Assembly: GCA_051294905.1 (NCBI GenBank)
Contig: CM119372.1
Span: 29,452,001-29,516,000, forward strand
DNA length: 64,000 nt
Direction of reading: 5' to 3'
Origin: Botryllus schlosseri
Taxonomy: Eukaryota
Positions 8,647 through 56,024 of this stretch are shown one piece after another; within the stretch, counting starts at the first letter, position 1; each line of letters opens with the position of its first letter. The notes beneath the pieces were generated by a model. It did no database searches, was not told the origin of the DNA, and saw only the letters and a program-made list of their open reading frames with translations. The position numbers and the translations under genes were made by a program.

Positions 8647-8659
8647 GTACATTGTACAA

Positions 8660-32666: not shown

Positions 32667-33249
32667 TAGGCTTCGAACCCCGCATCCAGTACGTTTTATG
32701 GGGATAAATATTTTTAGACTAAAATACTTTTCCAATGTACTAAAGTCTTACAGAACCGATTTTGTAGAGTAGATAGAAAACTACCTTTTGAGTCGATAGC
32801 GAAGTACTTGTACATTTTGGAGTAGTCAAGTATTGGTTTTGCCTTGGTAGAAATAGACTCAATCAAGTGATTATCTATTTACAGCGCATCTACTTCTATT
32901 TCAGAGTTTTCGGTTTTTAGACAAACTATACCTTCAATGCTTACTGATTTACTCGTTCGGAAATCATCACTTCTTGCACTTTACTAAAAATTTACTGATA
33001 CTAAAATGTTAAAATGTACTTTTTTCAATGCCCTCGATGAGCAACGCCAGTTTCAACTATATCCTATCATGCATTTTCGCGCTGCAGAATGACTTATCGC
33101 AACGAAAAATAGCAAAAATACATCGAGAATCTGCAAACTCTCACTGCGAAATATTTGAGTTTCACGAATTATCCTTCAAAGTGAGCTTACATATTGGATA
33201 TTATCGAATAATTGTACATTTGGAGTACTCAAGTATAGGTTTTGCCTGC
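32667..33249 (+). repeat. Segment whose inverted copy lies at ~54770-63880, split by insertions
   Basis: 32667-32850 matches the reverse complement of 63697-63880; 32853-33175 matches 56025-56354; about 33175-33249 matches 54770-54865. More diverged inverted copies at about 33900-34428 and 54250-54770. Confidence 0.85.
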
Positions 33250-34428
33250 CGCGTTTTCAAACTATAGAATGATATAGTCTCTACAAAATGTTTTTGATAT
33301 CAAGATAACTTTTTTACATGAATGGTCACGTATCCTAATATTCAAATAACCCAATACAGACCTAGTACTTACAGAAATATCGTAGTTCTTGTAACACAGT
33401 TGTCTGTGTACAATATATGTTTAAGGTAAGTCCTACATATTTATGATTTCGTCCTAGTTTGTATTTTAGAAAATAACATACAACAATTTACTTTACTAAC
33501 AAGAAGTGTCGAGTTATCGAATGATTTTCCCTTGCGTCAAAACAAATAGTATGTGGAACTATATTTCTAACGTTTCTAACCCTTTGCACACCTGTGGTAA
33601 ATCACACAAGCAACAAGTTTCGAGTACTGAAACTTAATTTTCCAGCAGTGTGATAAACGCCATCAGATGGTACTTAACATCGCGCAATTCCGCTCGAATA
33701 CAAGTAAAAGTACAGATTTCAAAGTAAGTAAGTAAGTAAGTAAGTGAGTAACTGGTTATGTTTGTAGACTATATATCCACTTTTATCGTTCAGGGATGTT
33801 GAGCAGAGAATGACATGAATTTCGTCAAATTACTCAAGTGGGTTTTTGCCTACATGCACCAAATACTCTCAACTCCATATGATATTGGAGTGCTTCAACT
33901 TCATGATAGTTAGAGTATTAGGCAGAAATATACCTGGAGTACTAACGTTTTACTTACTCGGAAATGATTACTTCTATCTTATTTTAAAGGATTCCTCGCT
34001 CGACGCGAAATTTTATAAGGTTTTGAATGATATCCAACATATAGGCTCACTTTGAAGGGTACTTCGTAAAATTCAAAAATATTGCACAGTGAGAGTTCGC
34101 GAATTCTTGATGTATTTTTGGTATTTTTATTGCGGTAAGTCATTCTGCAGCGCGAAAATGCATCATAGGATATAGATGAAACTGACACCGCTCACCAAGG
34201 GCACTGAAAAGAAGTACATTTCAACATTTTAGTAGCAGTAACTTCCTAGTAAAGTACAAGAAGTGATGATTTCCGAGTGAGTTAAAAACTAAGTATTGAA
34301 GGTATAGTTTGCTCGAAAAACCGACAACTCTGAAATAGAAGTAGATGCAGTGCAAATAGTTAATCACTTGATTAAGTATAGCGCAAGCAGGCCAAACCTA
34401 TACTTGAGTACTCCAAAATGTACAAGTA

Positions 34429-35389
34429 GGGGAGATGTGGTACCGATGGATCACTGGGACCGAAAATACTTGAAAAATTTTCCATGATAATTCTATGATT
34501 GCACTCCGTGAATTTTTCTACAATAACATGCTGAAAGAATCTTTCCTCACATGCAAAAAAATTCGACCTGCGCGAGTTATGGGGTCTGTGACGAATGATT
34601 TACGTTTTAGGGGGTGTGAAGTAAATTTAGATCGACATTTGCATTTTTCTATATCACCTCACAGACTAACAAACCCGCCATAATTTTTAATGTGAATTAT
34701 AGGGCTTGTATCAGGGTATATGATGCCACATATTTTTTGAATCAATACCATCCTCGAGTGGACTATTTTCAAGTCAATTACAATATTTATGGGGTGGGGG
34801 ACCTATGGTACCATAGCCAAATCAAGCCAAACAGATGGGCCAACTAATCACTTAACAACAGAAACTCGCCTGCATATATATAGGCGTTAAATCATAGTTA
34901 CATGTGGTGTTTTATCCCTATTACGAGGTATTTGAAAGTCAAAATGTCGATTTGCAGGTAATATGTATGTGGCATTAATTTTGTACGTTTAGGCGTAAAT
35001 CAAAGCATGATTTTATGCCAACATTTGGGTTGATATAATCTATTTTATTCTTGAAGGTCGCAACGAAACATTCTTCATTGGCTTGCTGTAGCTTAGCTTA
35101 CAGTACACAACAAAACAAGTTAACAAATTTGAGTTTTTGAGCGTATGTCTCATAGCTCCCATGATCGTGTGCCTTTGGACCAACCGGTGGGGACCGATGA
35201 CACGTTCGAGCAACAAATTTTAAACGTTCATAAATATTTTTTGAATAATCGCATATTCATGTAAATGTCCGCGATAGTTAGAGCTTGTATCAAAGTGTTG
35301 AGACAGCAAAAGATCCGCTATTCTCGGCTGAAGATTTGAGGGCTAGAGATCATTTTGCAATTTTTGATCCATCGTGACCACATCTCCCC
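34429..35389. mobile_element. TA-target DNA transposon MITE (961 bp), intact copy
   Basis: TIR GGGGAGATGTGGT(A)C.GATGGATC; TA on both sides; the empty site TGTACAAGTACTTCGCTATCG is seen at 63733-63753. Confidence 0.88.
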
Positions 35390-35803
35390 TACTTCGCTAT
35401 CGACTCCCTCCACGTGAAAAGGGACTAGGTTTTAGAGTACTTTATCAGTACTTGACAGTGTCAGTTTTAGACAAAATTTGGAATAAAAAACTAGCTCATT
35501 CACCCATTCGGAAATTTCTTCTTTAACCTGTACTTGAGTGTAGCGAGTAAATCTCATTTATTATTAATTCTACATGTACACTTGACCATGTGTTATGACT
35601 TACATAATTACTTTTCGCTATATTTGAAGTCTGTCAAATTGCAGTATATGTTACGGTGAGCTTATATTCGTTCTGTTTGATCATCTTGACTAACGATATT
35701 CATTCGACGAGCTCTTCAGTGATAGCCCTTGGACTTGGAACAGTGTTGTTTGACATCATAACGATACCAAGTTACGACAGTTTAAAATTATATACCTTAC
35801 GAC

Positions 35804-35997: not shown

Positions 35998-36845
35998 CTT
36001 ACGACACCAAATTTCGTTACTTCATCTCCACCTTCAAATATCGTGATATACAAATATTGTGTATACGGGACAAATACATATATGGCTATGTTGTTGCAAT
36101 CTTCAAAAAAGTACATCCCTCAGTAACCAATTTCTCGTAGGCTATGCATACAAATGAGGACAGTTACATCAACGAGAGGTAACTTGTTGTATTATGTAGC
36201 TAGTAATTAGTGCAAGTGAGTCCGCAACTACTGTTCAAGGCCTTTTCCTCGTTTTTACCAAGCATCCTCGTAAGGATAGACAGCCCCAATCAGCTAATGT
36301 AAGTGTGTACTGTGTATGTATGTATGAGGGGTCTTATGCCGCTTGACGAATGAAGTTGATCGTCTATTCTTTTCTGAAATAATCAAGTTAGTGGTTTTTA
36401 ACACGACCTCACCTCGTAGAAACTTCAGTAGAATAACTTATAACCCCTCACGTTTACTCAAGTAAATCTAATTTGATAATCAAGTACTGAATCTTGATTT
36501 TCCAACGAGTTCAAATTTAGCTCTAACTTATGAGATTAAATATAATAACTTTTCATGTTGCAGTGTAATTTACAGCATGAGCCAAGTGATTTCATAATTA
36601 ACACAAAATAAATAAATGAATTACTAGAGTAATATAAGATATTCGTGTCATCCTCCTTCGTATATCATAAAATAATACCTAGGGGAGATGTGGTACCGAT
36701 GGATCACTGGGACCGAAAATACTTGGAAAATTCTCCATGGTAATCCCATGATTACACTCCGTGAATTTTCCTACAAATACATGCTGACAGAATCTTTCCT
36801 CACATGCAAAAAAAATCGACCTGCGTGAGTTATGGGGTCTGTGAC

Positions 36846-37685
36846 AGTAGTTATATAGATCGCTCGTGATTTGCCTGGGGCTCTTATGGGCCCGCTCGCA
36901 CGCGGCTGGGAAACTCGTATTGGCACGCGGCTCCTTATGTCTTATGGGCCCGCTCGCACGCGGCTATTGCGTCTTATGACCCCTCTCACACGGTAACTCT
37001 TTTCAGTATAGCGATCGCTCGCACGCGGCTGGGAAACTCGTGTTGGCATGCGGCTCTTATGTTTTATGGGTGCGTTGGCATGCGGCTATTGCGTATTATG
37101 GCGGGGGTGGCAAGCGGCTCTTATGTCTTATGGCGGCGGTCGCAAGCGGCTGGGAAACTGGGGGTGGCAAGCGGCTCTTTTGTCTTATGGCGGCGGCGGC
37201 ATGCGGCTATTGTGTCTTGTGGTCGCACGGTAACCCTTTTCAGCATAGGGATAGCTCGCACGCGGCTTCGTTGTTGGCATGTCGTACTTCGTGTTGAATA
37301 TGTATCAAGTAAATAGTCATGTGATTGGTCCTTAGGTAATGTGTATATTCCAAATTACGGCGAGTACGACAATGATATATCGTTATTCTTATGGACGCGG
37401 CGATGATTCGTACTTTCAGGCATCTCTCGCGCGGTGTTGAATATGTACGAGTCACCAACAATAACCGCGCGGACGGAAACGTGGTTTGTTGTGAGGATTA
37501 AGCAGTGCGTGCGACCTATATTTCGAATGACCTGTGCGCTGAATTATTTCTCGTCCAGCCGCTACTATCGATTATTACACTATTCCATTCAGTGCGAAAT
37601 AGTTTGCTAAATCTAGGAATCAGTCGCATGGTGTTACTTTAGTAATTAGCTTACCATAGAGCCGGCGTAGCCGGTGATTCGAATA
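36846..37685 (+). repeat. E4 left terminal inverted repeat
   Basis: Reverse complement of about 52598-53437; identical mirrored ORF-track entries 37040..37297(+) and 52986..53243(-). Confidence 0.95.
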
Positions 37686-40600
37686 CCGACAAATTTTCAC
37701 TTATTTCTGACCCAACCCTAATCCTCTGTGAAGTTGACGCTTATCAAAAAAGGTGTGAAATAATTGTAAAATCCTAATCCGAAACCGATTATTTCGACTT
37801 TGGCGTAGTGCGCATTGAAATAGGATTGACAAACATGACTAGCAACTTCCCCACAGTCCCGTTTCGATATTATACACATATTGATTTGAAACAAGTAATG
37901 TAACATTACAACTCTATTCACGATCCTGCTTTCCGTTTGTCAAAGAGATATTTTAACATCTTACCATGCTCAAAAGAATTGTTCACAACATTAACAATTG
38001 TTAAAAATCTAGTTTCACTTACTTGATTATATCACTACAACTCATAAATTTGAATTAATTCATCCTGGTTGTACTCGTATGATCGGTCTTTTTTTATTCG
38101 ATTGTAAAGCTAGTTACTATTCTGAAGACAAAGTATTTACTAATCGGTGCATATACGATTTGACTTGAACATATTATATTTTGAGTATACGAGATTTGAA
38201 TGTCTGAACAATAACTGAGAAATAATTTATCACAATTAAATCCGTATATTACAGCGTAAAAGATATTTGAATGTCAGCAACTCGGTAAGGTCATAGTTAC
38301 TACCACATTACCTAATTTACCCGACCAACTCGTCATGATCATTCCCGAAATCAACACAAACATGACTACTGACTTGAGTTAACCACAAAACAGCATCAAG
38401 TTTTAAATCCACTTGTAGCTTACGGCTTATTTGAATGCGGGTTATGTTCTGTTGTAATTGAGTGTACGGAAATAGTATTACGTCTCGACATCTCACCATC
38501 TTACCATATTCAAAGAGTCAACCACGAAAACATTGTCAAGTAAATCCGTTTGTAACTTACCCGACCAACTCAAACAGTATCAGTATGAAAAACAGCCAAT
38601 CATACACGAATCCATACAATCACTAAAACCTAAAATCCATAACAAGCTTGGTTGTATTCATATCCCTACACATCTTTTTTTATTCAACTTGAAAAGTCGT
38701 TACTATTCTGTAAGATAGAGGAATTACTACGCGGTATATTTTGCAAGACAAACTAATTACTACTCGGTATATTTTGTAAGACAAAAGTAATTACTTCTCA
38801 GTGTCGGCGACTTGAGATTAACATAATATGTTTGAGTATACGAGATTTGAAAGTCCGACCACCGTAGTTGAGAATTCATTTCTTACAATCGAACGATGGT
38901 GTTATATTCAAAGTTATCATGCTGTGAACATAAGGATTGACACATTGATTTGACATATGAGATTTTGTAATAGTTGATCATTACTTTATTATTAAATTAT
39001 TTGCGTTAATTAGACCCGGCGTTGTGGTAAATGTTATGACAGCAACAAACTTTTCAGTACCAATGTTATTAACATATTAAGCTGTAAAACTATGTGTGTC
39101 TGAAATGTTCTTGATAGGAAAATTACTCCACCTTGGTAAAAATCACTCTGCGTATCGCGGATATCAGAAAATATTTCCAGTAACCAAGACTAAAGATGAA
39201 ACGACAATATCGGTATTATTACATTCAACAATCAGTACAATTATTAAAATCTATCGTTTGCGATAAACAGCACTAAAGATGTAATAATTCCAGTATTCAT
39301 ACATTAAACATCCGATACAAAATGCTATATTATCCCGATTCTCAACGGGTAATTGAAACGACTAAGTGTAGATTCAGCATATCACAATATCGTTACTGTT
39401 GAATCCAACGATTTATTGTCGGAATTTGTGACAGAGAATTGAAACATATGCACTTTACAGAGTGTGAAAATATCACTTTGAGTATCGATTACCGTTCGAA
39501 GCTAGCGATCAATTCTTAATCATTTCAGTAACTCCCCATTGTGCGTGCTAAATGTAAAATATCGCGAGGTTATACACTCTAAGACTTTGATTATTGCAAA
39601 AGTAAATTGTGATATGTTTGTTAGATGCATCCAATTCAACTAGAAGTGTCTAGTGCCCAACACTCGTAATATCAAAAAAGTACTTGCTACACTGTTATTT
39701 GCTAAACGTGTTTTGCATTGTTGTTCATTTCTAGTATTGATTGAAATCATTCTCGAACCCTCAAATAATAATTCCCGACATGAAACCAAGCCGCTGAAAG
39801 TCGTTACCATCACGAAGAAACAATGTGTACGATGTTTGTCAAATGTGTCCTACCTGACCAACAGAAAACAATTTTCACTCACTCGAAATGAAACCAATGT
39901 GATGGTCTCCATTCGATATTTTGTTTGTGTCAAATACTTTGCAATGAACACATTTGCGTGGTTGAGCTTTACATCATCAAGCTGTTATTTGTAAATCAAG
40001 ATTTCGGTAAACTTGTAAATGCATCGTTTAACTAACCGACATTTAGTGATTGGGGAACATACCAAACGATACACATCCATCTCTGAAATACTGCATTGAT
40101 CTTAATTTCCATCATCGTGATAATCGAAGTACATTTCTTTCGAATTCGTAACAACCGGTGTTTCTACGACACGATAAATTTTTGACAAGTTATGCTTAGA
40201 AGATTGGTTGCATATCGCGAAAAAAATAATATACCACTCATATTGATACAGAACTAGTACTAACAGAAACATCAGAGAGTTGTTTACACAAAAGTTTGTA
40301 TGTGTACAGTATGCGAATACCATGTGTAAGTCCAGCACAATTGCAGTATCCATCCGAGTTTAGTTAACACAAATTTATTACAACGGAGCCACGTAAACTT
40401 TCGTGAAAGAAAAGCATACTCACTTCCAGAGGGTTATGTCAACACCATAGCAGTAAATCAGCTACTCCAACAACAAAGTACATATGTTTCTAGCCACGGT
40501 CCTTACATCTTTCACATAGATCAATCTACTTTGCTAACGAAAAGTGCTGAGTCATCACATGATCGCCCTCACAACAAAACAGCTAGTAGATATTATCATT

Positions 40601-42249
40601 CAAAATATTCCTAACCCTTTACACACCAGTGACAAATCATACAACGAATATGTTTTGTGGGTCGAATTGTTGTTCAGTGTCAAGTCTACCTGTTGAAACG
40701 TACATTAAAACAGCGCAATTCAATTAAAACCACGAATCTATTTTCATTTCCTCACAAACTGTCACATACAGAAAAATAAATTTTATTCTGCCAAAACATA
40801 CTTGTAACCAAGCGCTTTCATTAAACACACAACACCATAAAAGTATTTACTTTCTACAACATAGACATTCCGATGTAGTCAAGAAATATTTTTATTAATC
40901 AAAATCATCGACTTCTGTTTACGGCGTTAGTGTGTGCATGTCATACATGTGGGCCCCGTATTAAAATGGACACGACACGACTGAATGTAAGGGGGGTAGA
41001 AGTCTATCACATCGATTTACATGTGGTCTTCGCTACGGTTTCAAAAAACGAATCATCTATTTTGCATTGGTCGAGACCGAGCGAACCAGTTACATGTATT
41101 CGCGGTAATGATTTTGCTTATCATATGCGAATGATAGGATTGCTACTCCGACAAATCAAATCAACATACAACAATCTTCTGACGATCATAATAGCAATTT
41201 CATTTTCCGACCCTTCATAATTGTATACGCACGAAAAGTATATTGTACAACTCGGTAACTACATTTAACAAGACCAATCACACTACCAGCGTTGAACACA
41301 AGATACCTACCCAAGTAAAAATATCATTCTGGTTTGGACAACTGACGTTTACCTGTGTAAAATTATCATTTTCACTTGGAGGTCCACCGTTACCTAACTA
41401 AAATACCATTGTCCTTTGGAGATTTATCGTTTACACAGTGTAACAAACCCCTTTTCACTTGGAAATCTATTTTTACCCAGTGTAACAAACCCCTTTTCCT
41501 TTGGAAATCTATTTTTTCCTTGAGCAACAAACCTTTTTCACTTGGAAATCTATTTTTTCTCTGGGTAACAAACCTTTTTCACTTGGAAATATATTTTTTT
41601 CCCCGGGTAACAAGCCTTTTTCGTTTGGAAAACTATCATTTACCTGAGTACCAATACCGTTTTCACTTGGAAATCTATCTTTTCCCTCGGTAACAATACC
41701 ACTTTCGTTTTAAAAACTGACAACCACACCGGACAATTTGATATTTTTGTATATTGTTACAACGGGCAGCGACAAAATATACACCAACAACGATTCCAAT
41801 ACATTTGTGTAATCGCATATTCACTTGTTCTGGTGCACCCCATCAAAATCCTCAGTTACCCACATGCAATATGTTGTACATCAACGTGTATGTTTTGGAA
41901 ATTGGACAATAGGTTTCGACGTGTCTGTGATGTCCGGGTTCGTGCTTTGGATTTTACAGAGTCAAAATGTCTGAATAAAACACCACCTCGACTTCGGTAA
42001 ATGTTTGGCACACAGATAACGGTGGTCGGAAATCGAGGAATTTATGTTTCCGTCAGGCTAACACCGCCGGGCTACTTGTGATTTATCTCACATGTGTTTA
42101 CTGTGTTGTGTCGCTCTTTATTGACCAATACATACCACACCACTCAGTTGAAATCGGAAACCCCGAGAAAGTATTAACCGGATCCGGATATCAACTCTGA
42201 ATCGGTAAACCATATTCAAGTAAACATGCCACATGCCTCCGTGAAAATA

Positions 42250-42467
42250 ACAAGACATCGCACAAATCAAGTATACCACGTGTGGAATTCTACGTTATGC
42301 ATCGGCTTGAAAACCTCTTGATAATTATTGTAACATTATACGACCCTGGATACACTTGGTTTAATCATTGATGTCGCATGCCTAATCAGCTTTGCAACAA
42401 AAGTAGTCTTCCCACTTCTTGAAGGACCACTCACAATACACGCGAATGGGTGGATCAATTCCATCAT
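42250..42467 (-). pseudogene. Truncated Polinton DNA-packaging ATPase (FtsK/HerA, A32-like), N-terminus only
   Basis: Manual translation from the ATG at 42467: MMELIHPFACIVSGPSRSGKTTFVAKLIRHATSMIKPSVSRVV*CYNNYQEVFKPMHNVEFHT. Walker A in the HPF..IV.GP..SGKT.FV context typical of Polinton ATPases; in-frame stop; no Walker B follows. Confidence 0.88.
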
Positions 42468-42510
42468 TTGTTGTTTATTGAAAACTCGATAAAGTGCATT
42501 TGTTTATATA

Positions 42511-42979
42511 TCAACAAGGTTGGGAATATCCACTGTTGTAGTCATCTTGTTCTAGCGGAATATATAATCCCAGTAGAGTTCGATTTAACAATTTTCCGCG
42601 GGTTATGAAATCTTCATCTGTCCCTCGTAATTTCGTCAGCGGAAGTTGTAGTGTTACGAACGCTTTATTCAGATCGTCAAGCAGCTGATCCCAATCTGTA
42701 AAATAATAAATCACATAAGAGGATTCATAACACGAGAGGATTCATAGCACTTTAAAATCTAACAGCGTTACTATAACAACTATAGACCTCACCTTTTGAA
42801 CACTCTTTCAAATCTTTATGTTGTCTCGATACGCGTTGTTCGTATAATTCACGCGATATCTCTCGATTCAAATACAGCTCCACGAGGTGTACATGATCGT
42901 GGCGTTGTACAAGTGTCTTTTCGTGTAACCGAGTCAGGCCTGCTTGTTCCAGAACAGATATTATGTAATCACTAGCCAT
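42511..42979 (-). CDS. Unknown Polinton protein, predicted 2 exons (42979-42793, 42695-42511), 123 aa; paralog of 43078-43626
   Basis: A 97-nt intron AAAG|GTGAGG...TTATTTTACAG|AT joins ORF-track entries 42752..42991 and 42511..42714 in frame; the spliced product aligns without gaps to the neighbouring ORF across the junction. Confidence 0.72.
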
Positions 42980-43077
42980 CTGTAAAAACAAGACACAGAT
43001 ATCAGGAAATATTGTTACTAAAATGTTTTAGTTACAAGTTGACATTTCGAAAACACCCACAGATTGTAAACAAAGTT

Positions 43078-43626
43078 TCACCTAAAACTATCAGTGTTCA
43101 CCACAAGATTATGTTCACAGCGACCAAGGGAATCATGTTTGCAAAAATCATCTGTTGTAGTATCGCTACTTTCAGAGTCAGAACGAGGCCGTTTCAAACT
43201 GTTTGCGACTCGATGTTGATCAAGGAAAAATTGGAATTTTCGATGTCGCTTGCGGGTTCTCAAGTAGGCTTGTCTCTCTTCGTGACCGAAAAGCGGTATC
43301 CACGCACAATTTTTTCCCAAGACCACATAATTTGTCAGCTTTGCTCTGTTGAATAGGATGTGGTTATCACTCGGCGTCTTTCGATCAGGAAATTGTAGTT
43401 GAAGTAGCGCTTCTATGCAGACACTTCGGACACGGATCCATTTCTCGTCTAGTTCCTGCCGGCGCGCCTTGGATCGATCGGGTATCGTGCGGTCTTGTGA
43501 GTTGTCGTCGGTACCGTGAATCAAGAGTTGTGTTAATTCCTGCTCCAGTTCAAGCGTCTCTAAGTGTAAACTATTTAAATCTAATTCGGACATTACTGAC
43601 TCAATATATGAAATAGCGTTATCCAT
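43078..43626 (-). CDS. Unknown Polinton protein (~182 aa from MDNAISY), helical, with basic then acidic C-terminal stretches
   Basis: Open frame directly downstream of pPolB; the ATG at 43626 is immediately preceded by TTTTCCAG; basic patches RTRKRHRK and KRPR; has an adjacent paralog. Confidence 0.75.
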   Translation of the reverse strand: MDNAISYIESVMSELDLNSLHLETLELEQELTQLLIHGTDDNSQDRTIPDRSKARRQELDEKWIRVRSVCIEALLQLQFPDRKTPSDNHILFNRAKLTNYVVLGKNCAWIPLFGHEERQAYLRTRKRHRKFQFFLDQHRVANSLKRPRSDSESSDTTTDDFCKHDSLGRCEHNLVVNTDSFR

Positions 43627-43738
43627 CTGGAAAACAAATGACACATTAGCACATAAAAAGTACAAGTAAATCATAATAATAGCAGACACACAGATAAAAT
43701 ACAATAGCACACAAAATAACAATTACGTCACAATGGTA

Positions 43739-46576
43739 TTACACATTCAATGGCAGGGTTGACACACCATCCTCGAGCACTCGACGTTTGGCATAGAAAT
43801 AGGAAAATGTTTTACGCTGTTGTTTGTACGTATAGACACCTCCATCTCTGCACCGAAACCCCTTGTTCACTCCTCCGACAGATTGCCTAGATGTCAAGAC
43901 ACCCAGCAAAGTTTCGAAATCGATTGGGTTGGATTTCCGGAGACCTTTGGAAGCCAATTTTTTCTTTGGACCATCACAAAAGTAATTTTTGGATTGGAGA
44001 CCGCAGAAAGATGTACCACCTTCATACTCCACTTTCATCAAACCCGGTTGACGAAGGTAATATGCATACGTGTCTTTGCAACACTGCCTCGAGCGATCAA
44101 AAGAAACCGGATCAGTCAGAAACTCAGCTCGGTGTTCGTCACAAAAATAGCGTGGAAACCAGTTCTCGTATTCAAGATAAAATTCATCCCTTTTCTCGGG
44201 GATAAGAATATCATCGAATGAGGCTGAATGCGAAAGATAGAGGGAGTCTGTGTCCATCATTAATAGCATGAAGGACTCGTCACGGAAATATTTACACAAG
44301 CAATCATAAAAAAACGACAGCATCTTGAGCTTAGCATTGTTATACACCCAGAATCCCACTTGAATACAGTTACCCCACTTGATCGTTTTAGGTCGCTTCG
44401 TTATTTCAAATAGATCGGCGTTCAATTCGTCATATTTCACAAAAAAACGATCCTTCACGTGGGTGCCGAATTCACTTTTATCGCAGTAGGAGGTTCGTTT
44501 GAATTTACGTGGGTTCATCAAGACGCGGCCATAGCTGCTGTTTCCGGCTAATTTTTGTGTCAGGGCGATGATCTCTAGGCTAGGGTCGCGGTCCCCAGCT
44601 CGTCGACAATCTGAGACATTTTTCGCAAAGTTGTCAAAACAGGTCTTTTTTGTGAATTCGACCGCCTCATGAATTTTGGATATAATCAACCCGTACTCTA
44701 CATACCACTTGATCAAGTCGGAGGTCAACAAGATTTTCTTGCCCCAGTATGAAGCAACCAACATGCGCGTGGGTTTGGTGAGTAATTTACGATCAATGGC
44801 AAACTGTTTCATGTGACCTTTCAAATGCTCGCGAGACACCATCGTATTTTTGAATATCGGACATAGTTCAACAAACTTCCTTTGTAAATGTTTTGGCGTA
44901 AAAATATCAACTGATAAACATCCGAAGAATGTACCAGTCATTACCATCTCCATCAGTTTTTGTGCGGTGACAGACTTGGTTCGAGTCAATTGTGGTTGAA
45001 TACCATTAAGATATCGCACAATATCAGGATTTTCCTGTTTCTCCGTGTGCCAGTCGCATTCCCATTTACATATGACTTGGTAATTGAGGCTTTTGTAATA
45101 ATCATGAACACGTTTAGTCCGTTCTCGACGTTCCAAATCATCACAACCAAATCTGCACTGATGTGCATGAAAATGACATCCAAGAAAAGACAAGATTACC
45201 CCTTGACCAGCTGAATTACGATAGAACCCATCAGCAGGATAATTACGAGCTCCTACGCGGATTTCAGGTCCATTAAAAACATGGTGGACATGTACATTGT
45301 GGGTATACGAATACCAGTTTAACCATTGAGCTGCTGTCTCCCCCCATTTCGGTGCGGTCTTTACAGGTTTGAATTTAGTACACTCAGCATCGAGTGGTTG
45401 CCAATGCACCGGGAAACCGGTTGGACTAGGTTCACTCAAAGCAAAAAGGTATAGCGAATTGCTGTCCAGCCCTGTTATATGTTGGGTAATCTGAGCGTTT
45501 TCCTTATAAAAATATTCTTTGATTCGAGTTTCACCCTGTTTTTGATATCGATGAAAAATGACTGACGGTCCACCCACTAAATTGTCTCTGAATAGCGAAA
45601 CCAGATCCTGGTGTTTATCGTTGAACAAGGTGAAATCACGCGGAATGCTATTAAAAAGATGCCTCGATACAACCCCAGGCAGAGAGACAGCTTCTTTGAA
45701 TATATCCACACTGAATTGACTTTTGAAAGATTGAAATTGTTTTTCTAACCCCTCAATGAAGTAATGAGTATCGATTGCATTGTACCATTTGAGATAATCA
45801 CGTAAAGTAGTCATTTTGTTATCGTTCCAAACCTTCAAACAGTTTTCATATTCGGCTGTGGATATATTACGACCCTTTAGCGAGCTGTAGAAGTCGCTGT
45901 GACTAGGTGGACTCGGATAATCTAGCTTTTCCAAACTAGTCAGAAACTCATACGGAAAATGACCTTTAGCGGCGCTACATTTGAAGGCTTTCAAATAAGC
46001 ATCGTACGAGAACCCGGGTGCCAAGTAATTTACAATGTCCAAGAATTTCAGTCTGTTGGTTGTCAAAGAGAGGAAGTTGTTACCTCGTTTCAATACATTC
46101 AGATTTTCATCAACGAGTAAACCCATCAAGTACTCTTTGAGACAGTTCAAGTCATACCGACCGCCATTGAACGACAAAACAGGGATTTGTTTTAAATATC
46201 GCATAAACTCCTCTTGTAAACGTTCAAGTGGTATTTTTCCCTCGGTGGGGTCGAGCGCCTTCATTTCGGTAATTTTACATTCGAGCATGTTCAAGTAGTG
46301 TTGATATTCCATCTGTAACAACCTAAATGACTCACTTTGAATATCGTGAAAATGATCAACCATTTCCGCACACAAGTCGTTTGGGTCACCGTTCGAGACA
46401 ATTACATACGGTTCCAAGAACCCTTCCACATTAGAAGATATGCTAACAGAAATGGGAATATGTTTGCACTCCCATGAAGTTTTGGAGGAATCTGGAATAT
46501 CACACTTCTCAAACATACTCTCGATATCAAACGCGATACGGTATTTGAAATAACGAAGCTGGTGAGGAACGAACAC
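43739..46576 (-). CDS. polB: Protein-primed family B DNA polymerase (pPolB), exonuclease and polymerase part
   Basis: Exo I AFDIES, Exo II SFNGGRYD, KGHFPYEF, Exo III YNAIDT, motif A LDSNSLY, motif B KLAGNSSYG, motif C MDTDSL, then SKNY. Continues 46606..47580 across a -1 frameshift. Confidence 0.97.
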   Translation of the reverse strand: MFVPHQLRYFKYRIAFDIESMFEKCDIPDSSKTSWECKHIPISVSISSNVEGFLEPYVIVSNGDPNDLCAEMVDHFHDIQSESFRLLQMEYQHYLNMLECKITEMKALDPTEGKIPLERLQEEFMRYLKQIPVLSFNGGRYDLNCLKEYLMGLLVDENLNVLKRGNNFLSLTTNRLKFLDIVNYLAPGFSYDAYLKAFKCSAAKGHFPYEFLTSLEKLDYPSPPSHSDFYSSLKGRNISTAEYENCLKVWNDNKMTTLRDYLKWYNAIDTHYFIEGLEKQFQSFKSQFSVDIFKEAVSLPGVVSRHLFNSIPRDFTLFNDKHQDLVSLFRDNLVGGPSVIFHRYQKQGETRIKEYFYKENAQITQHITGLDSNSLYLFALSEPSPTGFPVHWQPLDAECTKFKPVKTAPKWGETAAQWLNWYSYTHNVHVHHVFNGPEIRVGARNYPADGFYRNSAGQGVILSFLGCHFHAHQCRFGCDDLERRERTKRVHDYYKSLNYQVICKWECDWHTEKQENPDIVRYLNGIQPQLTRTKSVTAQKLMEMVMTGTFFGCLSVDIFTPKHLQRKFVELCPIFKNTMVSREHLKGHMKQFAIDRKLLTKPTRMLVASYWGKKILLTSDLIKWYVEYGLIISKIHEAVEFTKKTCFDNFAKNVSDCRRAGDRDPSLEIIALTQKLAGNSSYGRVLMNPRKFKRTSYCDKSEFGTHVKDRFFVKYDELNADLFEITKRPKTIKWGNCIQVGFWVYNNAKLKMLSFFYDCLCKYFRDESFMLLMMDTDSLYLSHSASFDDILIPEKRDEFYLEYENWFPRYFCDEHRAEFLTDPVSFDRSRQCCKDTYAYYLRQPGLMKVEYEGGTSFCGLQSKNYFCDGPKKKLASKGLRKSNPIDFETLLGVLTSRQSVGGVNKGFRCRDGGVYTYKQQRKTFSYFYAKRRVLEDGVSTLPLNV

Positions 46577-46605
46577 CCCTTCTAAATCAAGTTTTTCAAA
46601 TATAT

Positions 46606-47580
46606 TCAGCGAGGGCTATAAACGCCACCGGGAAACACTTCAACAGGTTCTGTTGTACATTTATGTCTGGTCAATTCATACTGTAAATTGAAAAATCTTT
46701 CACAAATATCACATTGATAGCTCTCTGCGTAACGGAATATATCAGTAATTAGACAGAAGTGTGCATTTTCTAAATGTAAATACACAGGTTTCGCTTCAAA
46801 CGTGCTACGACGGAGTGCGACAGCTTTACCCTCAGTTTTTGTGTACACAACTATGGCCACATCAAACAAGACCTCGATATCGTCCAACATATCAAGAGTC
46901 ACGCCGGATTCTACATTTACACTATACACCGAAGTAAATTGTTGAGCCAAATCTTTGGTGTCTTTTCCTAGTGAGTGAGCGATACACCGAAAAGCACACA
47001 GATTGTCATTGTACAGTTTACAATTTTTTCGACGTAGCATTGTCAAGACGCATTTCGATTTTGTAAGCCATGTCGGCAGCTTAATACCAGCACAACCAAT
47101 CAGTAAATGACTCGTAGGGTATACATAAAACTGGACATTAGTCAGACAGACTGGCAGTGACTTTGTATCTGCTCGAGAGTTTTGTAACAAATCAAGTGCG
47201 GTTTCCAGGCGAATAGATTCAACAAATTCATCAAATTCAGATAGTGTTGAAATTAGCGCTGGTGTTTCTAATACACTATCGATGTTTGCCGACGCATGTA
47301 AATACCGAAATCTCAGAGTCTCGGTGTGATATAAAATGAAGCCATGTGCGTAGTTCAATTTAAAGGTATGTGACTCGGAGAAAAATATCGCTTGGATATC
47401 GCGGGAAACGTCCGATAGCTCACGATCGATGACTCTAATATTATACACGCGCCGACTCTCATTCACTACATACGATTTTATCGCTTGCCAGTTCTGTGTT
47501 AAAATTTCTTGACGTTCATCACCAATATCTGGCGGCAATTCATCTTCCTCACGGATACGGTGTCTTCTACGACGACTCAT
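46606..47580 (-). CDS. N-terminal (terminal-protein region) part of pPolB, separated from the rest by a 1-nt frameshift
   Basis: Typical Polinton pPolB N-region features (FKLNYAHGFIL, DNLCAFRCIA, YLHLENAHFCLITD, CDICERFF...LTRHKC). Ends FPGGVYSP, and the -1 frame continues SLNIFEKLDLEGVFVPHQLRY into the polymerase ORF. Joined length about 1280 aa. Confidence 0.88.
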   Translation of the reverse strand: MSRRRRHRIREEDELPPDIGDERQEILTQNWQAIKSYVVNESRRVYNIRVIDRELSDVSRDIQAIFFSESHTFKLNYAHGFILYHTETLRFRYLHASANIDSVLETPALISTLSEFDEFVESIRLETALDLLQNSRADTKSLPVCLTNVQFYVYPTSHLLIGCAGIKLPTWLTKSKCVLTMLRRKNCKLYNDNLCAFRCIAHSLGKDTKDLAQQFTSVYSVNVESGVTLDMLDDIEVLFDVAIVVYTKTEGKAVALRRSTFEAKPVYLHLENAHFCLITDIFRYAESYQCDICERFFNLQYELTRHKCTTEPVEVFPGGVYSPR

Positions 47581-48053
47581 CTGTAACATTGTATTCGATT
47601 TTAATTTCACACTCCCGCTAATTAACGAGATAGTAATACCTACTTATCTTTTTCTTTGAAATCTTGATTACTTTTCACCTGGTAAACAAAGAAACAACCC
47701 TCCTTAAATTATATTCACCACGTTGTGGTTTGAAACAGAGCTTACCGATGCAATATGATCCGTGATTGTACTTGATTCTTCTGTATCTGTTTCGACGAAA
47801 CAAAAAACATCAGGTTAGCACAAACTTTAGTTTTGAATTAGATCAGTGTATACTTACACATGTATTGACAATATATCCACAAGTGTAGATTTCACCTCCT
47901 CTCGCCACAACGATCAGGTGGAGAAGACCGATTTGACTGCTTCTGGATTAATCTAGTGTTCACGATTTCAGATCGTTTGTAAGCCTATTATCTGTAATTT
48001 CAAACACAAACACATGAACATTTACATGCAAACAATCAAAGCAATACACTGAA

Positions 48054-48899
48054 TCACAAATCGTATTTCAAGGTATTTCTAATTGGTAAGAGTTGGTTCA
48101 GGTATTGTTCAGTTGCATCGTTCAATTGATTCTGAATCTGTTCAAAATCACTGCGTTCAATAGCCGATGCCAATAGCTTTTTTATTTCAATAAGGATTTT
48201 CCGGATGGAAGGCTTCTTCTTTTCCGTAAGGGAATCAATGAAACCTAGAATCATCGCTAGGTGTGGTCTGATCACATCAAGAGTTTTGAGGTGATCTCGA
48301 ATTTTATTGACAGTGTACAGACATATTTTCTCTTCCTGTCGTCTCGCCCTCGACCGTTTTCTATCCCCACCGCCTTTTACGAGTTTTTGTTTCAATTTAG
48401 AGAGGCGTATCTTTTTACATGGTGGTGGACTGGTTTGTGGCGAGGTCGCGGGTACATCTCGCTTTCTAGAGTTTGATGGTTTCTCGGTCGGGGTCTGTGG
48501 TTTTGGTAGATCAGAAAATAGCCTTCGAGAGGTCGTCGGTTTTTCACTCGGTGCCGCGGGTCGAATTCTAGATTTTGGAAAAGGTTTACGAGGAGTTGGC
48601 TGTTTCTCGATCGGTAACATAACTGAAGTTGTCGGCTCATCCTGAAGGGCTAAGTTCGAAGCCGAGGTTGTCGGTTTGTCAACTGCGACTCCTGATTCCA
48701 ACCATGCCTGTAGTGTGATGTCACGGTCAGGCGGATGGTTTTCAACTGTGGAATCACACTCAACGACCTCTATCGTTGGAGCAAGGAGGTCTTCGGGTAG
48801 GAGACCTTCCAAAAAACCCGCATCCTCTTCGAATCGCTGCTCAAAAGAATTCACTTCATACCCGAGGTTATTAAATCTGTTCAACTGAGCCTGAGCCAT
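48054..48899 (-). CDS. Unknown Polinton protein (~281 aa): acidic N-terminus, PTTS-rich linker, NLS-like basic motifs, helical C-terminus
   Basis: Long open frame co-oriented with pPolB; repeats DKPTTS/DEPTTS/EKPTTS/EKPSNS; PPPCKKIRL and RKRSRARR. Confidence 0.78.
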   Translation of the reverse strand: MAQAQLNRFNNLGYEVNSFEQRFEEDAGFLEGLLPEDLLAPTIEVVECDSTVENHPPDRDITLQAWLESGVAVDKPTTSASNLALQDEPTTSVMLPIEKQPTPRKPFPKSRIRPAAPSEKPTTSRRLFSDLPKPQTPTEKPSNSRKRDVPATSPQTSPPPCKKIRLSKLKQKLVKGGGDRKRSRARRQEEKICLYTVNKIRDHLKTLDVIRPHLAMILGFIDSLTEKKKPSIRKILIEIKKLLASAIERSDFEQIQNQLNDATEQYLNQLLPIRNTLKYDL

Positions 48900-49133
48900 G
48901 ATCAACACTAAATCGAGGTATACTGATTACCGGTTGATGTTCGAATAAGCAAGTAGGATTTACCAGCTGAATGACCACCTATTTATTCAAAAAACGACTT
49001 CCTACCACCACCTTCTTCCTTTTCGGCGTCGTGTTACTCTGTTTATTATAACAACCTTATTTCCAAATTCCAAAATGTATGATCACTTAATCACCGGGGA
49101 TTATTTTTACAGTTTTTGCAATAACCACCCAAA

Positions 49134-49465
49134 ATGGACTCAACTCATACCCGAATGATTATAGAAAATTACCTGCGTCACCATCACAATCTACATGTAT
49201 CCGCTTTGGGAGAAATAGAACAGTCGGTTCACGACATCGTTGATGTATACATATCGGATCAAATTGCTGTGAGCATCGAAAAATGTGATTTCACGTCACT
49301 AAACAACTCGATTCTGGGATACGGCGTGGACTGGAATGGTCTTATGTGCATTATAGCGGTCGCAGCTATGAAAAGTGATGTTCACACTATCTCGGCGTAC
49401 ACAGATTCGACATCGAAATTCTTGAATACACACTTTATCTCGCTGACAAATGATTGGGTATGGTG
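49134..49465 (+). CDS. Putative Bcl-2-like protein (110 aa before the hAT insertion at its stop codon)
   Basis: DFTSLNNSILGYGVDWNGLMCIIAVAA resembles BH1 (F..V.NELF.DGVNWGRIVA.F.F); KFLNTHFISLTNDW lies in a BH2-like position; RMIIENYLRH resembles BH4. Removing 49466-51494 restores ...TNDWVW-TGA. Confidence 0.5.
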
Positions 49466-51486
49466 CAGACATGGGGTAATCGCGATTAGTAATCGTAATC
49501 GATTACGACGATTACAGCATTTTCAAGTAATCGTAATCGCAATCGATTACATTCGAAAAAATCCCGAAGTAATCGTAATCGTAATCGACTACTTCCCATA
49601 TTTAATCGATTTCTTTGTGAAAGAACGATTACTTTTTTTTGTACAAGGACTGTGACATAAACTGAACATTCGTGAACAAGGAAGAGATATTATACCAGTT
49701 ATTGAGAGCACAAACGTCTGATTTTTAAATGCCACTGCTCATTATTACGTCAGAGATAGCCTATTAGCTTTGCTCGTCTTTGCGTAGGAAGTGTCCACGC
49801 ATAGTAAATAGATATTCGATGTACATTAGTGTGATTGTAAAAAACCCACCGTGCTGTATATCGGTTTATCAATAAATTTCAGACGCCACTACCTCGCATC
49901 AGGATAATTAATCATAATCACCTCTCTGCCTAAGATAAAATAGCAACTTTTGTATTGATGTTTGGTTATGCTTAGTTAAACTATAGAATGTAATAGTTCT
50001 AATTCTAGAGTTAAATGCAGTTTCACCGTTGCTGCTTGGCGAGCAGTAGACCTATATGGTATGAGCGTACAGCAGACAAAGGTTTAAAATTTTGTACTCG
50101 TCAAATAAAACATTACGGTTTCCAGAACGAAGCATTAAAATCAACAGCTGCTGATATGTATCATAACTGGGCCGTTGTTTTGCCGTTTCTCGTAATGGCA
50201 GCTTGCGTTACATTATCTGCATTAAGTTGAAGGCAGAATTTTATGTTCTCTTTCTGTTATTCTCATAATATTCTACTCAAAACGGGCGCCAATCGCTATT
50301 TCACAATTCTTTACTGAACATTTGGACTTGCCGCCGTAGCCATCGGCTTATATACCATGTTAGCGTGGGTTGTAGCTAGAATCAGGATCAAAACAGCAAA
50401 AGCGTCCCCTAACCAATCTTTGGTCTTGGGCCCCCATAGGGTAGTCAATTTTATGTTTACGATTTAATTTCGTCAATAATATTGATAATTGCATTATATT
50501 GCATTTTTAATCCAATCTCAGCGACCTAAGGTCAGATTTACCTGAAGAGCGGGGGGGGGGGGGTCGTAATTCATAATTATAACATCTGTTATCTTGCAAT
50601 AATTAATTTATTGTATGTTGTTAATTTGTGACCTCCGGTCTGTTATATAGCCAAAAGTAGTGGCCCAAACAACAGCAGACTAACAGAAAAACTTGCGTGA
50701 GACGCACCGGGTGGCATTTGCATCGTTGGCTCAGATTGGAAGGAATGGACTGTTAGTCATGCCCACCCAGCGCGGCTACTAACAATGGACACATACGCTA
50801 AGTTTTGGCCAATGTCTTTTTTAATAGCACACTTCGTGAAGTCTCATGTTTGCCGAAACTGCATAAGTCTTTTGATGTGTCGAGGAGCGGTATTGACTGG
50901 CACCTAAATGCCTATTACTTTGAATTATGCAATATGCATGCTTTATTTCTTGAGGGGGAGACGTATATGCATTTCGAAATCAAGCTATCTAGAGACATTT
51001 AAATCGCAAAGCTCAAAGAGAAATTCGAAGTTAATGAAATTTCTCGAAAATACTCTATAATTTATGTTGGTTTACAAAATACTTTTGAGTCCCCTCCAAC
51101 CACGCCCCCCACCCTATTGGGGAATTGGGGGTGCGGCAGTCATGGACATGGCAAGAATGCAAATCATTGGGTGCGATAAACCGTCCTCTATAAAATGGGC
51201 TATGGGTACATTATGACGTAACAAGGAAATGTCCCATCTTTTTTAAAGACAGTTGTTATATCATCGGACCTTTCCAGCGCAATCCATGTTTTGTCTTCCA
51301 ATATAACTACTACGATGCAAAATAAATGTAATCGTGAGTAATCGTGATTACTTTTCAAATGTAATCGTAATCGTAATCGACTACTTCCCGATTTTGCTGT
51401 AATCGTAATCGTAATCGTAATCGCGTGATTCAGAAGTAATCGTAATCGCAATCGATTACATTCATGAAGTAATCACCCCATGTCTG
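49466..51486. mobile_element. Non-autonomous hAT element (2.0 kb) inside E4
   Basis: TIR CAGACATGGGGT...ACCCCATGTCTG; 8-bp TSD GTATGGTG; subterminal GTAATC repeats. Confidence 0.93.
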
Positions 51487-52597
51487 GTATGGTGAATTTC
51501 AAACTACACAATCATAAACTATCACTGTGATTCCATTTTACAGAATTCCGCCGAGGATTATTTCAGACCGAGCTTGTTCAGACGATTTATCCGACTTCTA
51601 AACCGAGCAACTACCCGTTTGTGGTCGCAGATTGACCAGTTAACCCGAATTCTAGAGCTACAAGAATGATATGTATATGTGTCTACTGTTTCTCAATACA
51701 CAATGTTTGATGCATATTTTGGTGTCGCCCCTGAATACTGAATATAGATCGCGCTTTTCGCGTTACTGCTGAATACTGAATACCCCTGAATGTAATAGCA
51801 CTGACTGGATTAGTGTAATAATCGATACGATAGTTCAGTATACTGTAGCACGAAACAGCTGCACAGGAAAAAAATTCAGCGCGCAGGTCATTCGAAATAT
51901 AGGGCGCGCGCGTAATCCTCACAACAAGCCGTGTTCGCAAAACGGATGTAGTTAGTGGGTCGCACATATCAAAACGCAAGCGCAAACATCTGTTTTTCAA
52001 AATCGCACAATGTACTGTGGTTTAGTAAATTTCCCCGTCGGCAATAAGTGACAATTTGTTGCTATTCAAGTTACCCACACTGATGGTTCTGTTAGTCGGT
52101 ATTTATTAAATCTTACCAGTGAAATCCAGTTCTGTGTCAAACTGATTACTAAAATTTCACCGCGTGTGCGATCGGTATGGCTATGACACCAAGTCGTGAA
52201 AGATGACTATGTCCGAGACATTATCTTGTCAGTGATCGCGGGGTTTTGCAAATATTTCACACCTTTTTTGAATAAGCGTTAACTTCACAAAGGATTACGG
52301 CTAGAATAGAAATAAGTAACAATTTGTTGGTATTCAAGTCTCGCCGGTGGTGTATCTGTTATTCGGCGCTTATTACACTTATCATGAAATTAGAGTGAGA
52401 ACATAAAGCATCAAGTTGTTGTTTTCGAATTTTGATGTCGAGGTGATAAATTTACGCCTTCAATTACAATTCAACTTCGGTTGTGTATTGAGTGATAGAT
52501 CGATATGCCGGAAGTGGTATCTTGTGAGCGATCGTAGGATTTTACAAATATTTCACATCTTTTTGAAGTGTTAGTTTGCGAACGCGACTATTGTTGA

Positions 52598-53437
52598 TAT
52601 TCGAATCGCCGTCTACGCCGGCTCTGTGGTAAACTAATTACTAAAGTAACACCATGCGACTGATTCCTAGATTTAGCACACTATTTCGCACTGAATGGTA
52701 TAGTGTAATAATCGATAGTAGCGGCTGGACGAGAAATAATTCAGCGCACAGGTCATTCGAAATATAGGTCGCACGCACTGCTTAATCCTCACAACAAACC
52801 ACGTTTCCGTCCGCGCGGTTATTGTTGGTGACTCGTACATATTCAACACCGCGCGAGAGATGCCTGAAAGTACGAATCATCGCCGCGTCCATAAGAATAA
52901 CGATATATCATTGTCGTACTCGCCGTAATTTGGAATATACACATTACCTAAGGACCAATCACATGACTATTTACTTGATACATATTCAACACGAAGTACG
53001 ACATGCCAACAACGAAGCCGCGTGCGAGCTATCCCTATGCTGAAAAGGGTTACCGTGCGACCACAAGACACAATAGCCGCATGCCGCCGCCGCCATAAGA
53101 CAAAAGAGCCGCTTGCCACCCCCAGTTTCCCAGCCGCTTGCGACCGCCGCCATAAGACATAAGAGCCGCTTGCCACCCCCGCCATAATACGCAATAGCCG
53201 CATGCCAACGCACCCATAAAACATAAGAGCCGCATGCCAACACGAGTTTCCCAGCCGCGTGCGAGCGATTGCTATACTGAAAAGAGTTACCGTGTGAGAG
53301 GGGTCATAAGACGCAATAGCCGCGTGCGAGCGGGCCCATAAGACATAAGGAGCCGCGTGCCAATACGAGTTTCCCAGCCGCGTGCGAGCGGGCCCATAAG
53401 AGCCCCAGGCAAATCACGAGCGATCTACATAACTACT
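52598..53437 (-). repeat. E4 right terminal inverted repeat
   Basis: Reverse complement of 36846-37685. Confidence 0.95.
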
Positions 53438-54865
53438 TGTGACGAATGATTTTCGTTTTAGGGGGTGTAAAGTAAATTTGGATCGACATTTGCATTTTTC
53501 TATATCAACTTTCAGACTAACAAACCCGCCATAATTTTTGATGTGAAGTATAGGGCTTGAATCAGGGTATATAATGGCACATATTTTTTGAATCAATATC
53601 ATTCTCGAGTGGACTATTTTCAAGTCAATTACAATATCTATGGAGTGGGGGACCTATGGTAACATAGCCAAATCAAGCAAAGTAGATGGACACACTAATC
53701 ACTCAACAACAGAAACTCGCCTACGTATAAATAGCTGTAAATCATAGTTACCTGTGGTGTTTTATCGCTATTACGAGGTATTTGAAAGTCAAAATGTCGA
53801 TTTGCGGGTAATATGTATGTGGCATTAATTTTGTAAGTTTAGGCGTAAATCAAAACATGATTTTATGCCAACATTTTGAGTTGATATAATCTATTTTATT
53901 CTTGAAGGTCGTGACGAAACATTCTTCATTGGCTTACTGTAGCTTAGCTTAAAGTGCACAACAAAACAAGTTAACAAATTTGAGTTTTTGAGCGTATGTC
54001 TCATAGGTCCCATGGTCGTGTGCCTCTGGACCCACCGGGTGGGGACCGATGACACGTTCGAGCAACAAATTTTAAACGCTTATAAATATTTTCTGAAAAG
54101 GCGGATATTCATGTAAATGTCCTCGATAGGTAAAGCTTGTATCGAAGTGTTGAGACAACAAAAGATCTGCTATTCTCAGCTGAAGATTTGAGGGCCAGAG
54201 ATCATTTTGCAATTTTTGATCCATCGGCACCACATCTTCCCTACTCTCGAATCAAGTGTTTATAATATTGTACTGCTTCAAATCCATTATAGTTTCAGAA
54301 TGAAGCAGAAATAGACTTGGAATACTGACGTTTTACTCAGTCGGAAATAGGTACTTCCACCTTTATTCAAAGGATTTGTCGCTCGGAGCGAAATTCTACG
54401 AGGTTTTGGATAATACCCAAAATGTAGGTTCACTTTGAAGAGTAGTTTGTAAAACTCAATTATCGTATAGTGGGAGTTCGCAAATTCTCGATGCATTTGT
54501 GCTATTTTTCCTTGCGATAAGTCATTCTGAAGTGCGAAAATGCATTGTAGAATATAGATGAAACTGGACCCGCTCATCAAGGCCAATGGAAAAGTACATT
54601 TCAACATTCTATTACCAGTGAATTTCTTCTGAAGTACATGAAGTGCTGATTTCCAAGCGAGTAAAAAAGTAAGTATTGAAGGTATTATTTGTCTGATAAC
54701 TGAAAACTCTGAAATAGAAATAGAAGTAGATGAAGTCTAAATAGATAATCACTTGATTAAGTGTAGCGCAAGCAGGCGAAACCTATACTTGAGTACTCCA
54801 AATGTACAATTATTTCGATATCGAAAGGGTTTTGATAATATCCAATATGTAAGCTCACTTTAAAG

Positions 54866-56024
54866 CAGTGGTTCTTAACCTTGCCCCCAGCGCCCCCCAG
54901 AGGCGCTGGCGATTTTGAAGGGGGGCGGAAACGCTCAGGGGGCGATATGGGGGGCGCTGGGCTCAGGGGGCGGTAACGCTCAGGGGGCGATATGGGGGGC
55001 GCTGGGCTCAGGGGGGCGGTATGGGGGGCGCTGGAGAAAAATGGCTTCGCAGTAGATGATGTGGTGATAGGACATATCCTTAATGAGTATTCAGAGCAAA
55101 TTAACACCGAAAACTTCGTTACATATAGCCTTCAAAATACATATAGGTTTAATTGTCCATGGGCGCCTAAATGACTGACACCGAATGTTTCTGTCTTGGC
55201 AATATGAACCCCAGAAGACGTATGTCAGTGAAGAAATACCAATCTGAAATCGTGTGTGTCTTTTAGTTGGGCGATTGGGCGACAGGGATATTCCTGTTGA
55301 GCGATTCTATATTTTTTGATATTGCAGACAGGGGGTCACGAAATAACATCATGCAACGAAGTCATACCTACGGGTTCGCCCGCCCAAATATGTTTAATTA
55401 TTAGTAACGGGCCCTACAGTTTCCAAGAAACCTCACAATGTTCGCTTTAAGTTTTGATGAGTCTGCGCACACTCAACAACTCACAGCCTAATGGGGGTCT
55501 GGGAGTGAAGTCCCCCGGAAGCTTGATTTATCACCCGACGGAGGCCCAGGACCAACGTTTTTTGTTTGGGGGGGAGCTGACGAAGTGCTGTTACGGCCCT
55601 GGTAACGAATAATTGTACCTGCGGGCACGCCCGAATATGTGTAATTATTAATTACGTGCCCTTTATCTTCCTATACAACAGATCACTCAGTTTATCGCGA
55701 CTTATATATGTAATTACCACCTATTCATTCATGCATTATAGAAAATTTTGATACCTAGGGCGACCAGGCCACACAAACTTTGCTGACCATCGAAATCACG
55801 ATAGGGGGTTCGTGGGGGCGAAGCCCTCAGAAGTTCGGTTTATCACGCTATGGGTGGGCAAGGCAATCGTTTTTAGGGGGTTGACGAAGTGCTGTTACGG
55901 CCCTCACTCTTACTCAGTGTCTTTATTACATTCCTTACAATATGAAGTTGGGGGGGGGGGGGGGGGCTGGAGCACGATAATTTTTGAAAGGGGGCGCTGG
56001 AGGAAAAAAGGTTAAGAACCACTG
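54866..56024. mobile_element. hAT (Charlie/Buster-like) non-autonomous element
   Basis: TIR CAGTGGTTCTTAACC...GGTTAAGAACCACTG; 8-bp TSD CTTTAAAG; G-rich GGGGGCG subterminal repeats. Confidence 0.93.

Follow-up and report, generated by a model that had tools for sequence, protein, structure and literature searches.

A probable helper-integrated Polinton derivative in Botryllus schlosseri that combines a broken polymerase gene with a satellite-type arm

We analyzed a 64,000-nt stretch of the Botryllus schlosseri genome (contig CM119372.1, forward-strand positions 29,452,001 to 29,516,000; hereafter the window, within which all positions are counted) and focused on the element at 36,846–53,437, which we call E4. 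This element is an oddly built Polinton derivative that was probably integrated by a helper and whose polymerase gene, pPolB, is broken in the E4 copy. E4 shares AGT-repeat terminal inverted repeats (TIRs), a 6-bp target-site duplication (TSD), and a pPolB gene with complete Polintons and lacks the single-frame pPolB, integrase, capsids, protease, and full-length ATPase that define them. As a linear plasmid, it would need a functional polymerase of its own, and its pPolB is frame-broken; as a palindromic satellite, it would have two long mirror arms and no core genes, and it has one arm and an inverted repeat of only 847 bp. What it does show is intact ends and an intact TSD with no integrase of its own, as in a derivative mobilized in trans. 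E4 is neither a complete Polinton nor a working replicon, and it works like a helper-dependent derivative. The fuller reading that we prefer, to which we give an even chance, is that a Polinton polymerase half was joined to a satellite-type arm and the product was inserted by a helper integrase.

E4 is a real, young insertion. Its TIRs (36,846–37,692 on the [+] strand and 52,591–53,437 on the [−] strand) are 847 nt long, end in AGTAGT, and differ at 10 positions (98.8% identity), 8 of which fall within the inner 110 bp. The hexamer TGTGAC is duplicated exactly on both sides (36,840–36,845 and 53,438–53,443), and both flanks continue a sister repeat at 34,427–35,393 (92% identical) in which TGTGAC occurs once (34,587–34,592), i.e., the empty site. 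These results bear out the original prediction of a young insertion with a perfect TSD, near-identical TIRs, and a known empty site. Related short repeats form a cluster at 32,793–35,393 and 53,438–56,354, and E4 sits inside one of them. Without a secondary insertion (described below), E4 measures 14,563 bp, which is near the size of a fold-back element in the same window, E1 (13,671 bp).

The integration and virion module is lost from E4. For comparison, we used 80 metagenome loci with related polymerases, including 16 of at least 10 kb, among which an integrase open reading frame (ORF) was present in 11/16 and a major capsid ORF also in 11/16. Searches of E4 by tblastn with 684 ORFs from related loci of at least 5 kb and with hidden Markov models (HMMs) of 20 ORF clusters gave no signal for integrase, major or minor capsid, or protease and recovered, besides pPolB, only the initial 59 of the 213 ATPase positions; Pfam found nothing on 12 stop-read-through frames of E4. 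The top HMM scores (−2.9 to 4.1 bits) lay within the range for block-shuffled DNA (−3.3 to 5.7 bits) in a comparison that covered capsid, penton, integrase, protease, and three smaller genes. The search methods work, since both positive controls were detected, namely the integrase of a relative (PF00665 at 1e-13) and a decayed protease at 28,533–28,883 (45 bits); the capsid HMMs lacked such a decayed control, and the capsid and protease of the relative also escaped Pfam. The claim that E4 has no recognizable integrase, capsid, or protease therefore stands, also against the HMM searches that could have revealed an intact integrase or capsid gene inside it. We also considered the left arm of E4 as a decayed structural module and rejected this idea, as its HMM scores were at shuffle level. 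Three metagenome loci of 11–18 kb (L072, L078, and L060) carry pPolB, and none of their ORFs falls in the clusters for integrase, capsid, protease, or ATPase; these loci may be divergent, partial, or degraded.

The pPolB gene is split over two frames on the (−) strand: an N-terminal part of 324 aa (47,580–46,606), terminated by a stop at 46,606–46,608, and a C-terminal part of 958 codons (46,615–43,739) with exonuclease I–III and palm A–C motifs. We found 99 pPolB relatives, which include single ORFs of 1,281–1,563 residues and of which the best are 37–44% identical to the E4 protein; all 10 tested are continuous and align to E4 as two pieces meeting near 46,615. All catalytic motifs of the exonuclease and palm are retained in the downstream frame, whose first Met is codon 34, past the exonuclease I motif (codon 30). 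By position and motifs, the N-terminal part can be read as terminal protein (TP), vOTU-like protease, and zinc finger (PMC11161782), so that the priming domain lies on the upstream piece, separated from the downstream frame. Because pPolB is frame-broken near 46,615, the E4 copy as assembled cannot replicate itself. The open frames originally proposed to run from 42,511 to 49,465 are thus interrupted in pPolB, and the frame of the ATPase stub is also interrupted, as shown below. The pPolB gene and all its motifs are present, but the predicted retention of the polymerase is not borne out, since the frame is not continuous; the proposed self-replication is not supported for the E4 copy, given the break and a first downstream Met past exonuclease I. 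Since no PF03175 match was found, we place E4 probably in the Beta pPolB class. An IMG/VR scan with the pPolB alignment gave 71 pattern matches, none of which was confirmed.

Whether the split is a lesion at all deserves attention, as it could reflect an assembly error, or the two parts could be expressed separately by splicing or ribosomal frameshifting. Three E4 genes begin behind a splice-acceptor-like site, and one E4 intron is supported by reads. Adenoviruses keep terminal protein and polymerase apart. In a coral polinton, TP and vOTU have been described as split from each other (PMC11161782). However, such described splits fall between TP and vOTU and not past the zinc finger, the 10 relatives are continuous at the break, the frames share just 10 bases, in which inspection revealed no canonical slippery heptamer, and the aligned pieces leave no space for an intron. 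We consider a non-lesion split or an assembly error, taken together, very improbable.

To the left of the accessory genes, E4 carries the remains of a packaging ATPase (42,235–42,467, [−] strand), a stub of ~65–75 codons that matches profile positions 2–59 of 213 from 42,467 onward and has an intact Walker A but no Walker B motif, in agreement with the predicted reduction to the first ~65 codons. Codon 44 of the stub is an in-frame stop, and the frame breaks near 42,280. The stub abuts a non-coding arm (37,693–42,228) with no coding signal, which is homologous to the arms of E1 and of a second fold-back, E2, and contains a 42-bp tandem array (41,308–41,718). The arm covers 3,779 of 4,536 bp against E1 and 2,854 of 4,536 bp against E2, mostly at 71–87% identity. 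Within it, a block of 277 bp (40,716–40,992) is 95% identical between E4 and E1, compared with ~80% for the remainder, and overlaps a 113-codon (+)-strand frame that is broken in E1.

The arm/stub junction (42,222–42,245) lies where it had been placed (42,240), with arm homology ending close by at 42,228. Homology with E1 and E2 stops at a single motif (42,228 in E4 and 7,594 in E1). E1 (1,751–15,421) is a fold-back with arms 97–99% alike and one mismatch in its TSD, and it is nested in the left end of E2 (region 1,437–23,662), which has an exact 6-bp TSD. The left arm of E2 reaches 21,100, where an 8-bp hairpin is followed by a jump to the mirror copy of 17,673; this junction of E2 lies ~17 bp beyond the shared motif, and ~17 bp separate the E4 junction from the position homologous to it. 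That two rearrangements fall at one site of such a 5-kb arm suggests a possible hotspot, seen post hoc in two cases.

The stub makes up 3.2% of the coding DNA, with ~5.7 kb lying outside it, and holds two of the three lesions (P ~0.003, or 0.06 when only the stop is counted; both post hoc). The divergence since insertion that the TIRs allow (0.14–0.6%) predicts just 0.005–0.02 stops in the stub. Because this is far fewer than observed, the ATPase lesions probably predate the insertion, at a time when pPolB would still have been kept. Decay of the stub beyond that of the other coding DNA is a post hoc hint that pPolB may have been under selection after the loss. Loss of the integration and virion module is itself clear; on indirect evidence it preceded the insertion, so that the integrase was probably borrowed, as had been proposed.

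To place E4 among its relatives, we used three DNA-type runs, which consist of contigs placed at ≥85% likeness with termini outside the stretch and whose depths are summed contig depths, not copy numbers. Median depth over the arm was 33, 38, and 20 times that over pPolB, which in turn was 23, 10, and 8 times that over ORF281, an accessory gene of E4; the rank arm > pPolB > ORF281 was identical in all three runs. The E4 arm is therefore part of a very abundant family, and the majority of pPolB relatives are not of the exact E4 type. Close relatives differ from E4 by 1.5–4.4% (9 pieces chosen among the 24 listed). No stop was found in 5,742 coding sites outside the stub, compared with 4.3–8.6 expected at 2–4% neutral divergence, or ~2–4 given that half of this divergence lies on the side of the relatives. 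Among the variants inside ORFs, 11/22 were synonymous (from 40 of 1,360 rows listed, a non-random sample).

The anatomy of E4, its missing genes, the pPolB frame break, and the later 2-kb insertion are observed directly, and we infer the remaining steps of its origin as follows. A template switch may have made the join while free linear copies underwent protein-primed strand-displacement replication, and the join would have fallen where the arm has its inner end, a site prone to rearrangement. The chimera, using its own pPolB, could then have replicated for some time as the ATPase stub, now without use, decayed, until an integrase supplied in trans would have inserted it here, leaving the 6-bp TSD. 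Later, the E4 copy would have acquired the pPolB frame break and the transposon insertion, and it would now be inert or passively mobile; its copy number is probably low. E4 retains the Polinton replication half (pPolB, four accessory ORFs, and the right end), and chances seem balanced that the arm stands in place of ~6 kb of ATPase, integrase, capsid, and protease genes. The 9.2 kb retained, a module of ~6 kb as in the related locus L008, and one TIR add up to ~16 kb.

Several points weigh against this origin. A complete parent of 21 kb would fall within the published range of 12.7–24.6 kb (PMC8097293). No stable hairpin is present at the junction site in E4 or E1 (z = −0.34 and +0.28, respectively), the decay argument rests on two to three events only, the join itself could have produced the frame break near 42,280, and a parent that was ATPase-dead and integrase-bearing and was later deleted would give the same lesion pattern. 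An assembly error could also account for the pPolB break, the read rows listed being silent either way. None of the 24 pieces listed spans the junction (more than 124,000 further pieces and 5,438 loose ends exist), and neither a second copy of the junction nor a relative with an intact ATPase occurs among the matches listed. A search for an intact ATPase of the E4 family among longer proteins, which is weak evidence, yielded one candidate and none that was significant.

The simplest competitor is decay in place, in which a complete Polinton of ~21 kb used its own integrase to insert and afterward suffered an internal deletion of ~6 kb, the frame break, and the transposon insertion. Degradation is the common fate of such elements, with 96% of vertebrate Maverick loci degraded (PMC8097293), and in Caenorhabditis elegans pPolB beside a TIR without integrase, at 10 loci, was treated as a remnant (10.1101/2024.01.15.575659). 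E4 itself has two further disruptions, and the lack of a second junction copy among the matches listed fits a deletion confined to this locus. Set against this are ATPase lesions that look older than the insertion, a junction that coincides with that of E2 to within ~17 bp, and a left 4.5 kb that is a satellite-type arm, for which no counterpart was found in the related-locus gene maps inspected. We take decay in place to be a real possibility, if an unlikely one. A bolder claim is that E4 is a recently broken copy of a multi-copy Polinton lineage without integrase and capsid, with pPolB under selection, free linear replication in an animal nucleus, and insertion by a helper integrase, which would make it an intermediate between polintoviruses and linear plasmids that arose by exchange of a satellite module; this we regard as doubtful.

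A tiered system, as originally envisaged, goes further still. In it, a multi-copy lineage whose sister copies hold an intact pPolB would replicate like a linear plasmid, borrow an integrase, and supply polymerase to E1 and E2. The differential decay of the ATPase stub, the retention of all pPolB catalytic motifs, the absence of stops in 5,742 coding sites where ~2–4 would be expected on the E4 share, the relatives at 1.5–4.4% (9 of the 24 pieces listed), and the synonymous half of the 22 listed ORF variants all speak for it. However, pPolB is broken in E4, and the signs of selection would be equally expected with complete elements as close relatives. The role of E4 as pPolB supplier is unsupported and fares worst, since other pPolB sources are 8–23 times deeper, the termini of E1 and E2 match those of E4 at only 23–29 of the first 40 bases, and RNA depth over pPolB is below 2 (0–1.7, in one run of which ~6% was read). 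Overall, the tiered system appears improbable.

Compared with complete Polintons or Mavericks (adintoviruses), E4 has similar AGT-type ends, a TIR within the reported 46–1,447 bp, a 6-bp TSD, and a length within their size range (PMC8502044, PMC8097293), along with a multi-domain pPolB and an ATPase whose start lies downstream of it, the arrangement found in L008. It differs from them in lacking integrase, capsid, penton, and protease and in having a truncated ATPase, a broken pPolB, and a 4.5-kb non-coding arm. Intact vertebrate elements span 12.7–24.6 kb, with 96% of loci degraded, as noted above (PMC8097293), and are described as intronless, whereas E4 has a spliced accessory gene. By definition, Polintons encode both pPolB and integrase (PMC5499653). 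Near full-size non-autonomous forms resembling E4 in length are known (Polinton-1N1_DR, 15,469 bp, and Polinton-2N1_DR, 11,092 bp; PMC4028283), and the same study lists 9/72 elements in which capsid, penton, ATPase, and protease are jointly absent (section 4, Table S1); the table does not give their pPolB and integrase status, and E4 differs in keeping an ATPase stub and a satellite arm. The polB-less polintons of Pieris are also bounded by TIRs, lost a core gene, and apparently moved afterward (10.1101/2025.02.07.637071), but they are the mirror case, having lost pPolB and kept the structural genes.

Linear plasmids of the fungal cytoplasm, for example pGKL1, likewise lost the morphogenetic module and have TIRs and a polymerase of TP-vOTU-Exo-Palm type (PMC11161782), and polintons that shed the virion module are thought to be their ancestors (PMC11161782). 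In contrast to E4, which is chromosomal, is flanked by a TSD, and has a broken pPolB, they are free, cytoplasmic, and functional. The palindromic satellites E1 and E2 share with E4 the arm DNA, AGTAGT ends, a 6-bp TSD, similar size, and helper dependence; E4 has one arm, the polymerase module replacing the second, and belongs to a different TIR subfamily. We found no description of a pPolB-bearing, integrase-less family flanked by TSDs in the literature, which was mostly non-subscription, and no integrated intermediate with pPolB but without integrase in the literature searched; the available parts of 10.64898/2026.10.13.758929, 10.1101/2023.08.22.554363, 10.1101/2022.07.12.499685, and PMC11131425 contain nothing on a pPolB-bearing integrase-less form.

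An E4 junction common to several loci would show trans action of Polinton integrase on polymerase-bearing derivatives and selection for pPolB in cis, while a junction unique to this locus makes E4 one more defective Polinton. The match between the E4 and E2 junctions points to one site that spawned both fold-backs and chimeras, and on that basis the replication model could be tested with sequence data.

Other parts of the window contain related DNA. The region E3 (27,729–29,320) is a further Polinton end, and the decayed protease that served as a control (28,533–28,883, [−] strand) belongs to it; this protease is followed directly by arm-type DNA, where the capsid gene would be, and no matching right end for E3 was found. 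A different inverted repeat at 58,969–61,752 has 518-bp arms (98% identical), a 1.7-kb spacer, and weaker inner symmetry, and no AGTAGT ends were found there. In E4 itself, the right sub-terminal non-coding region (51,495–52,590) in part resembles E1 arm DNA (70–87%).

A secondary, non-autonomous insertion of 2,021 bp (49,466–51,486) with short TIRs and an 8-bp TSD, presumably hAT-like, is absent from relatives, and the insertion-free form (a joint skipping 2,029 bp) is present in all three DNA-type runs. The insertion displaced the stop codon of ORF110 (49,134–49,465, [+] strand), an accessory gene with no Pfam match; a resemblance to Bcl-2-like proteins was considered and dropped. Its Atlas neighbors are unnamed phage-type proteins (0.91–0.92), PD-(D/E)XK families (0.86) serve only as a lead, and a single-sequence model was unusable (predicted local distance difference test score [pLDDT], 38).

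The remaining accessory genes lie on the (−) strand. ORF281 (48,054–48,899; 290 codons from stop to stop) is a low-complexity gene with no Pfam match. ORF182 (43,078–43,626) is a weak paralogue of ORF123 (blastp E-value of 3e-4) with no convincing relative in the libraries searched, including 1.84 billion representatives among which a single weak match reached an E-value of 6.6e-4. ORF123 (42,511–42,979) consists of two exons (42,979–42,793 and 42,695–42,511) separated by a 97-nt GT-AG intron, which is backed by the splice sites and by the loose end of 23 RNA reads at 42,697. In the single RNA run (1,735 reads placed), depth per strand was 10–38 over 42,164–43,651, compared with the 0–1.7 over pPolB given above. 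The RNA reads carried non-E4 alleles at two sites (124/125 and 119/119); therefore, these transcripts come from related copies. Moreover, 78 RNA reads join an upstream exon to ORF123, and this exon has no convincing match in the 64-kb window. A splice-acceptor-like site precedes the start codon in each of ORF123, ORF182, and pPolB, and donor- and acceptor-like sites between ORF281 and pPolB (47,581–48,050) suggest small exons there.

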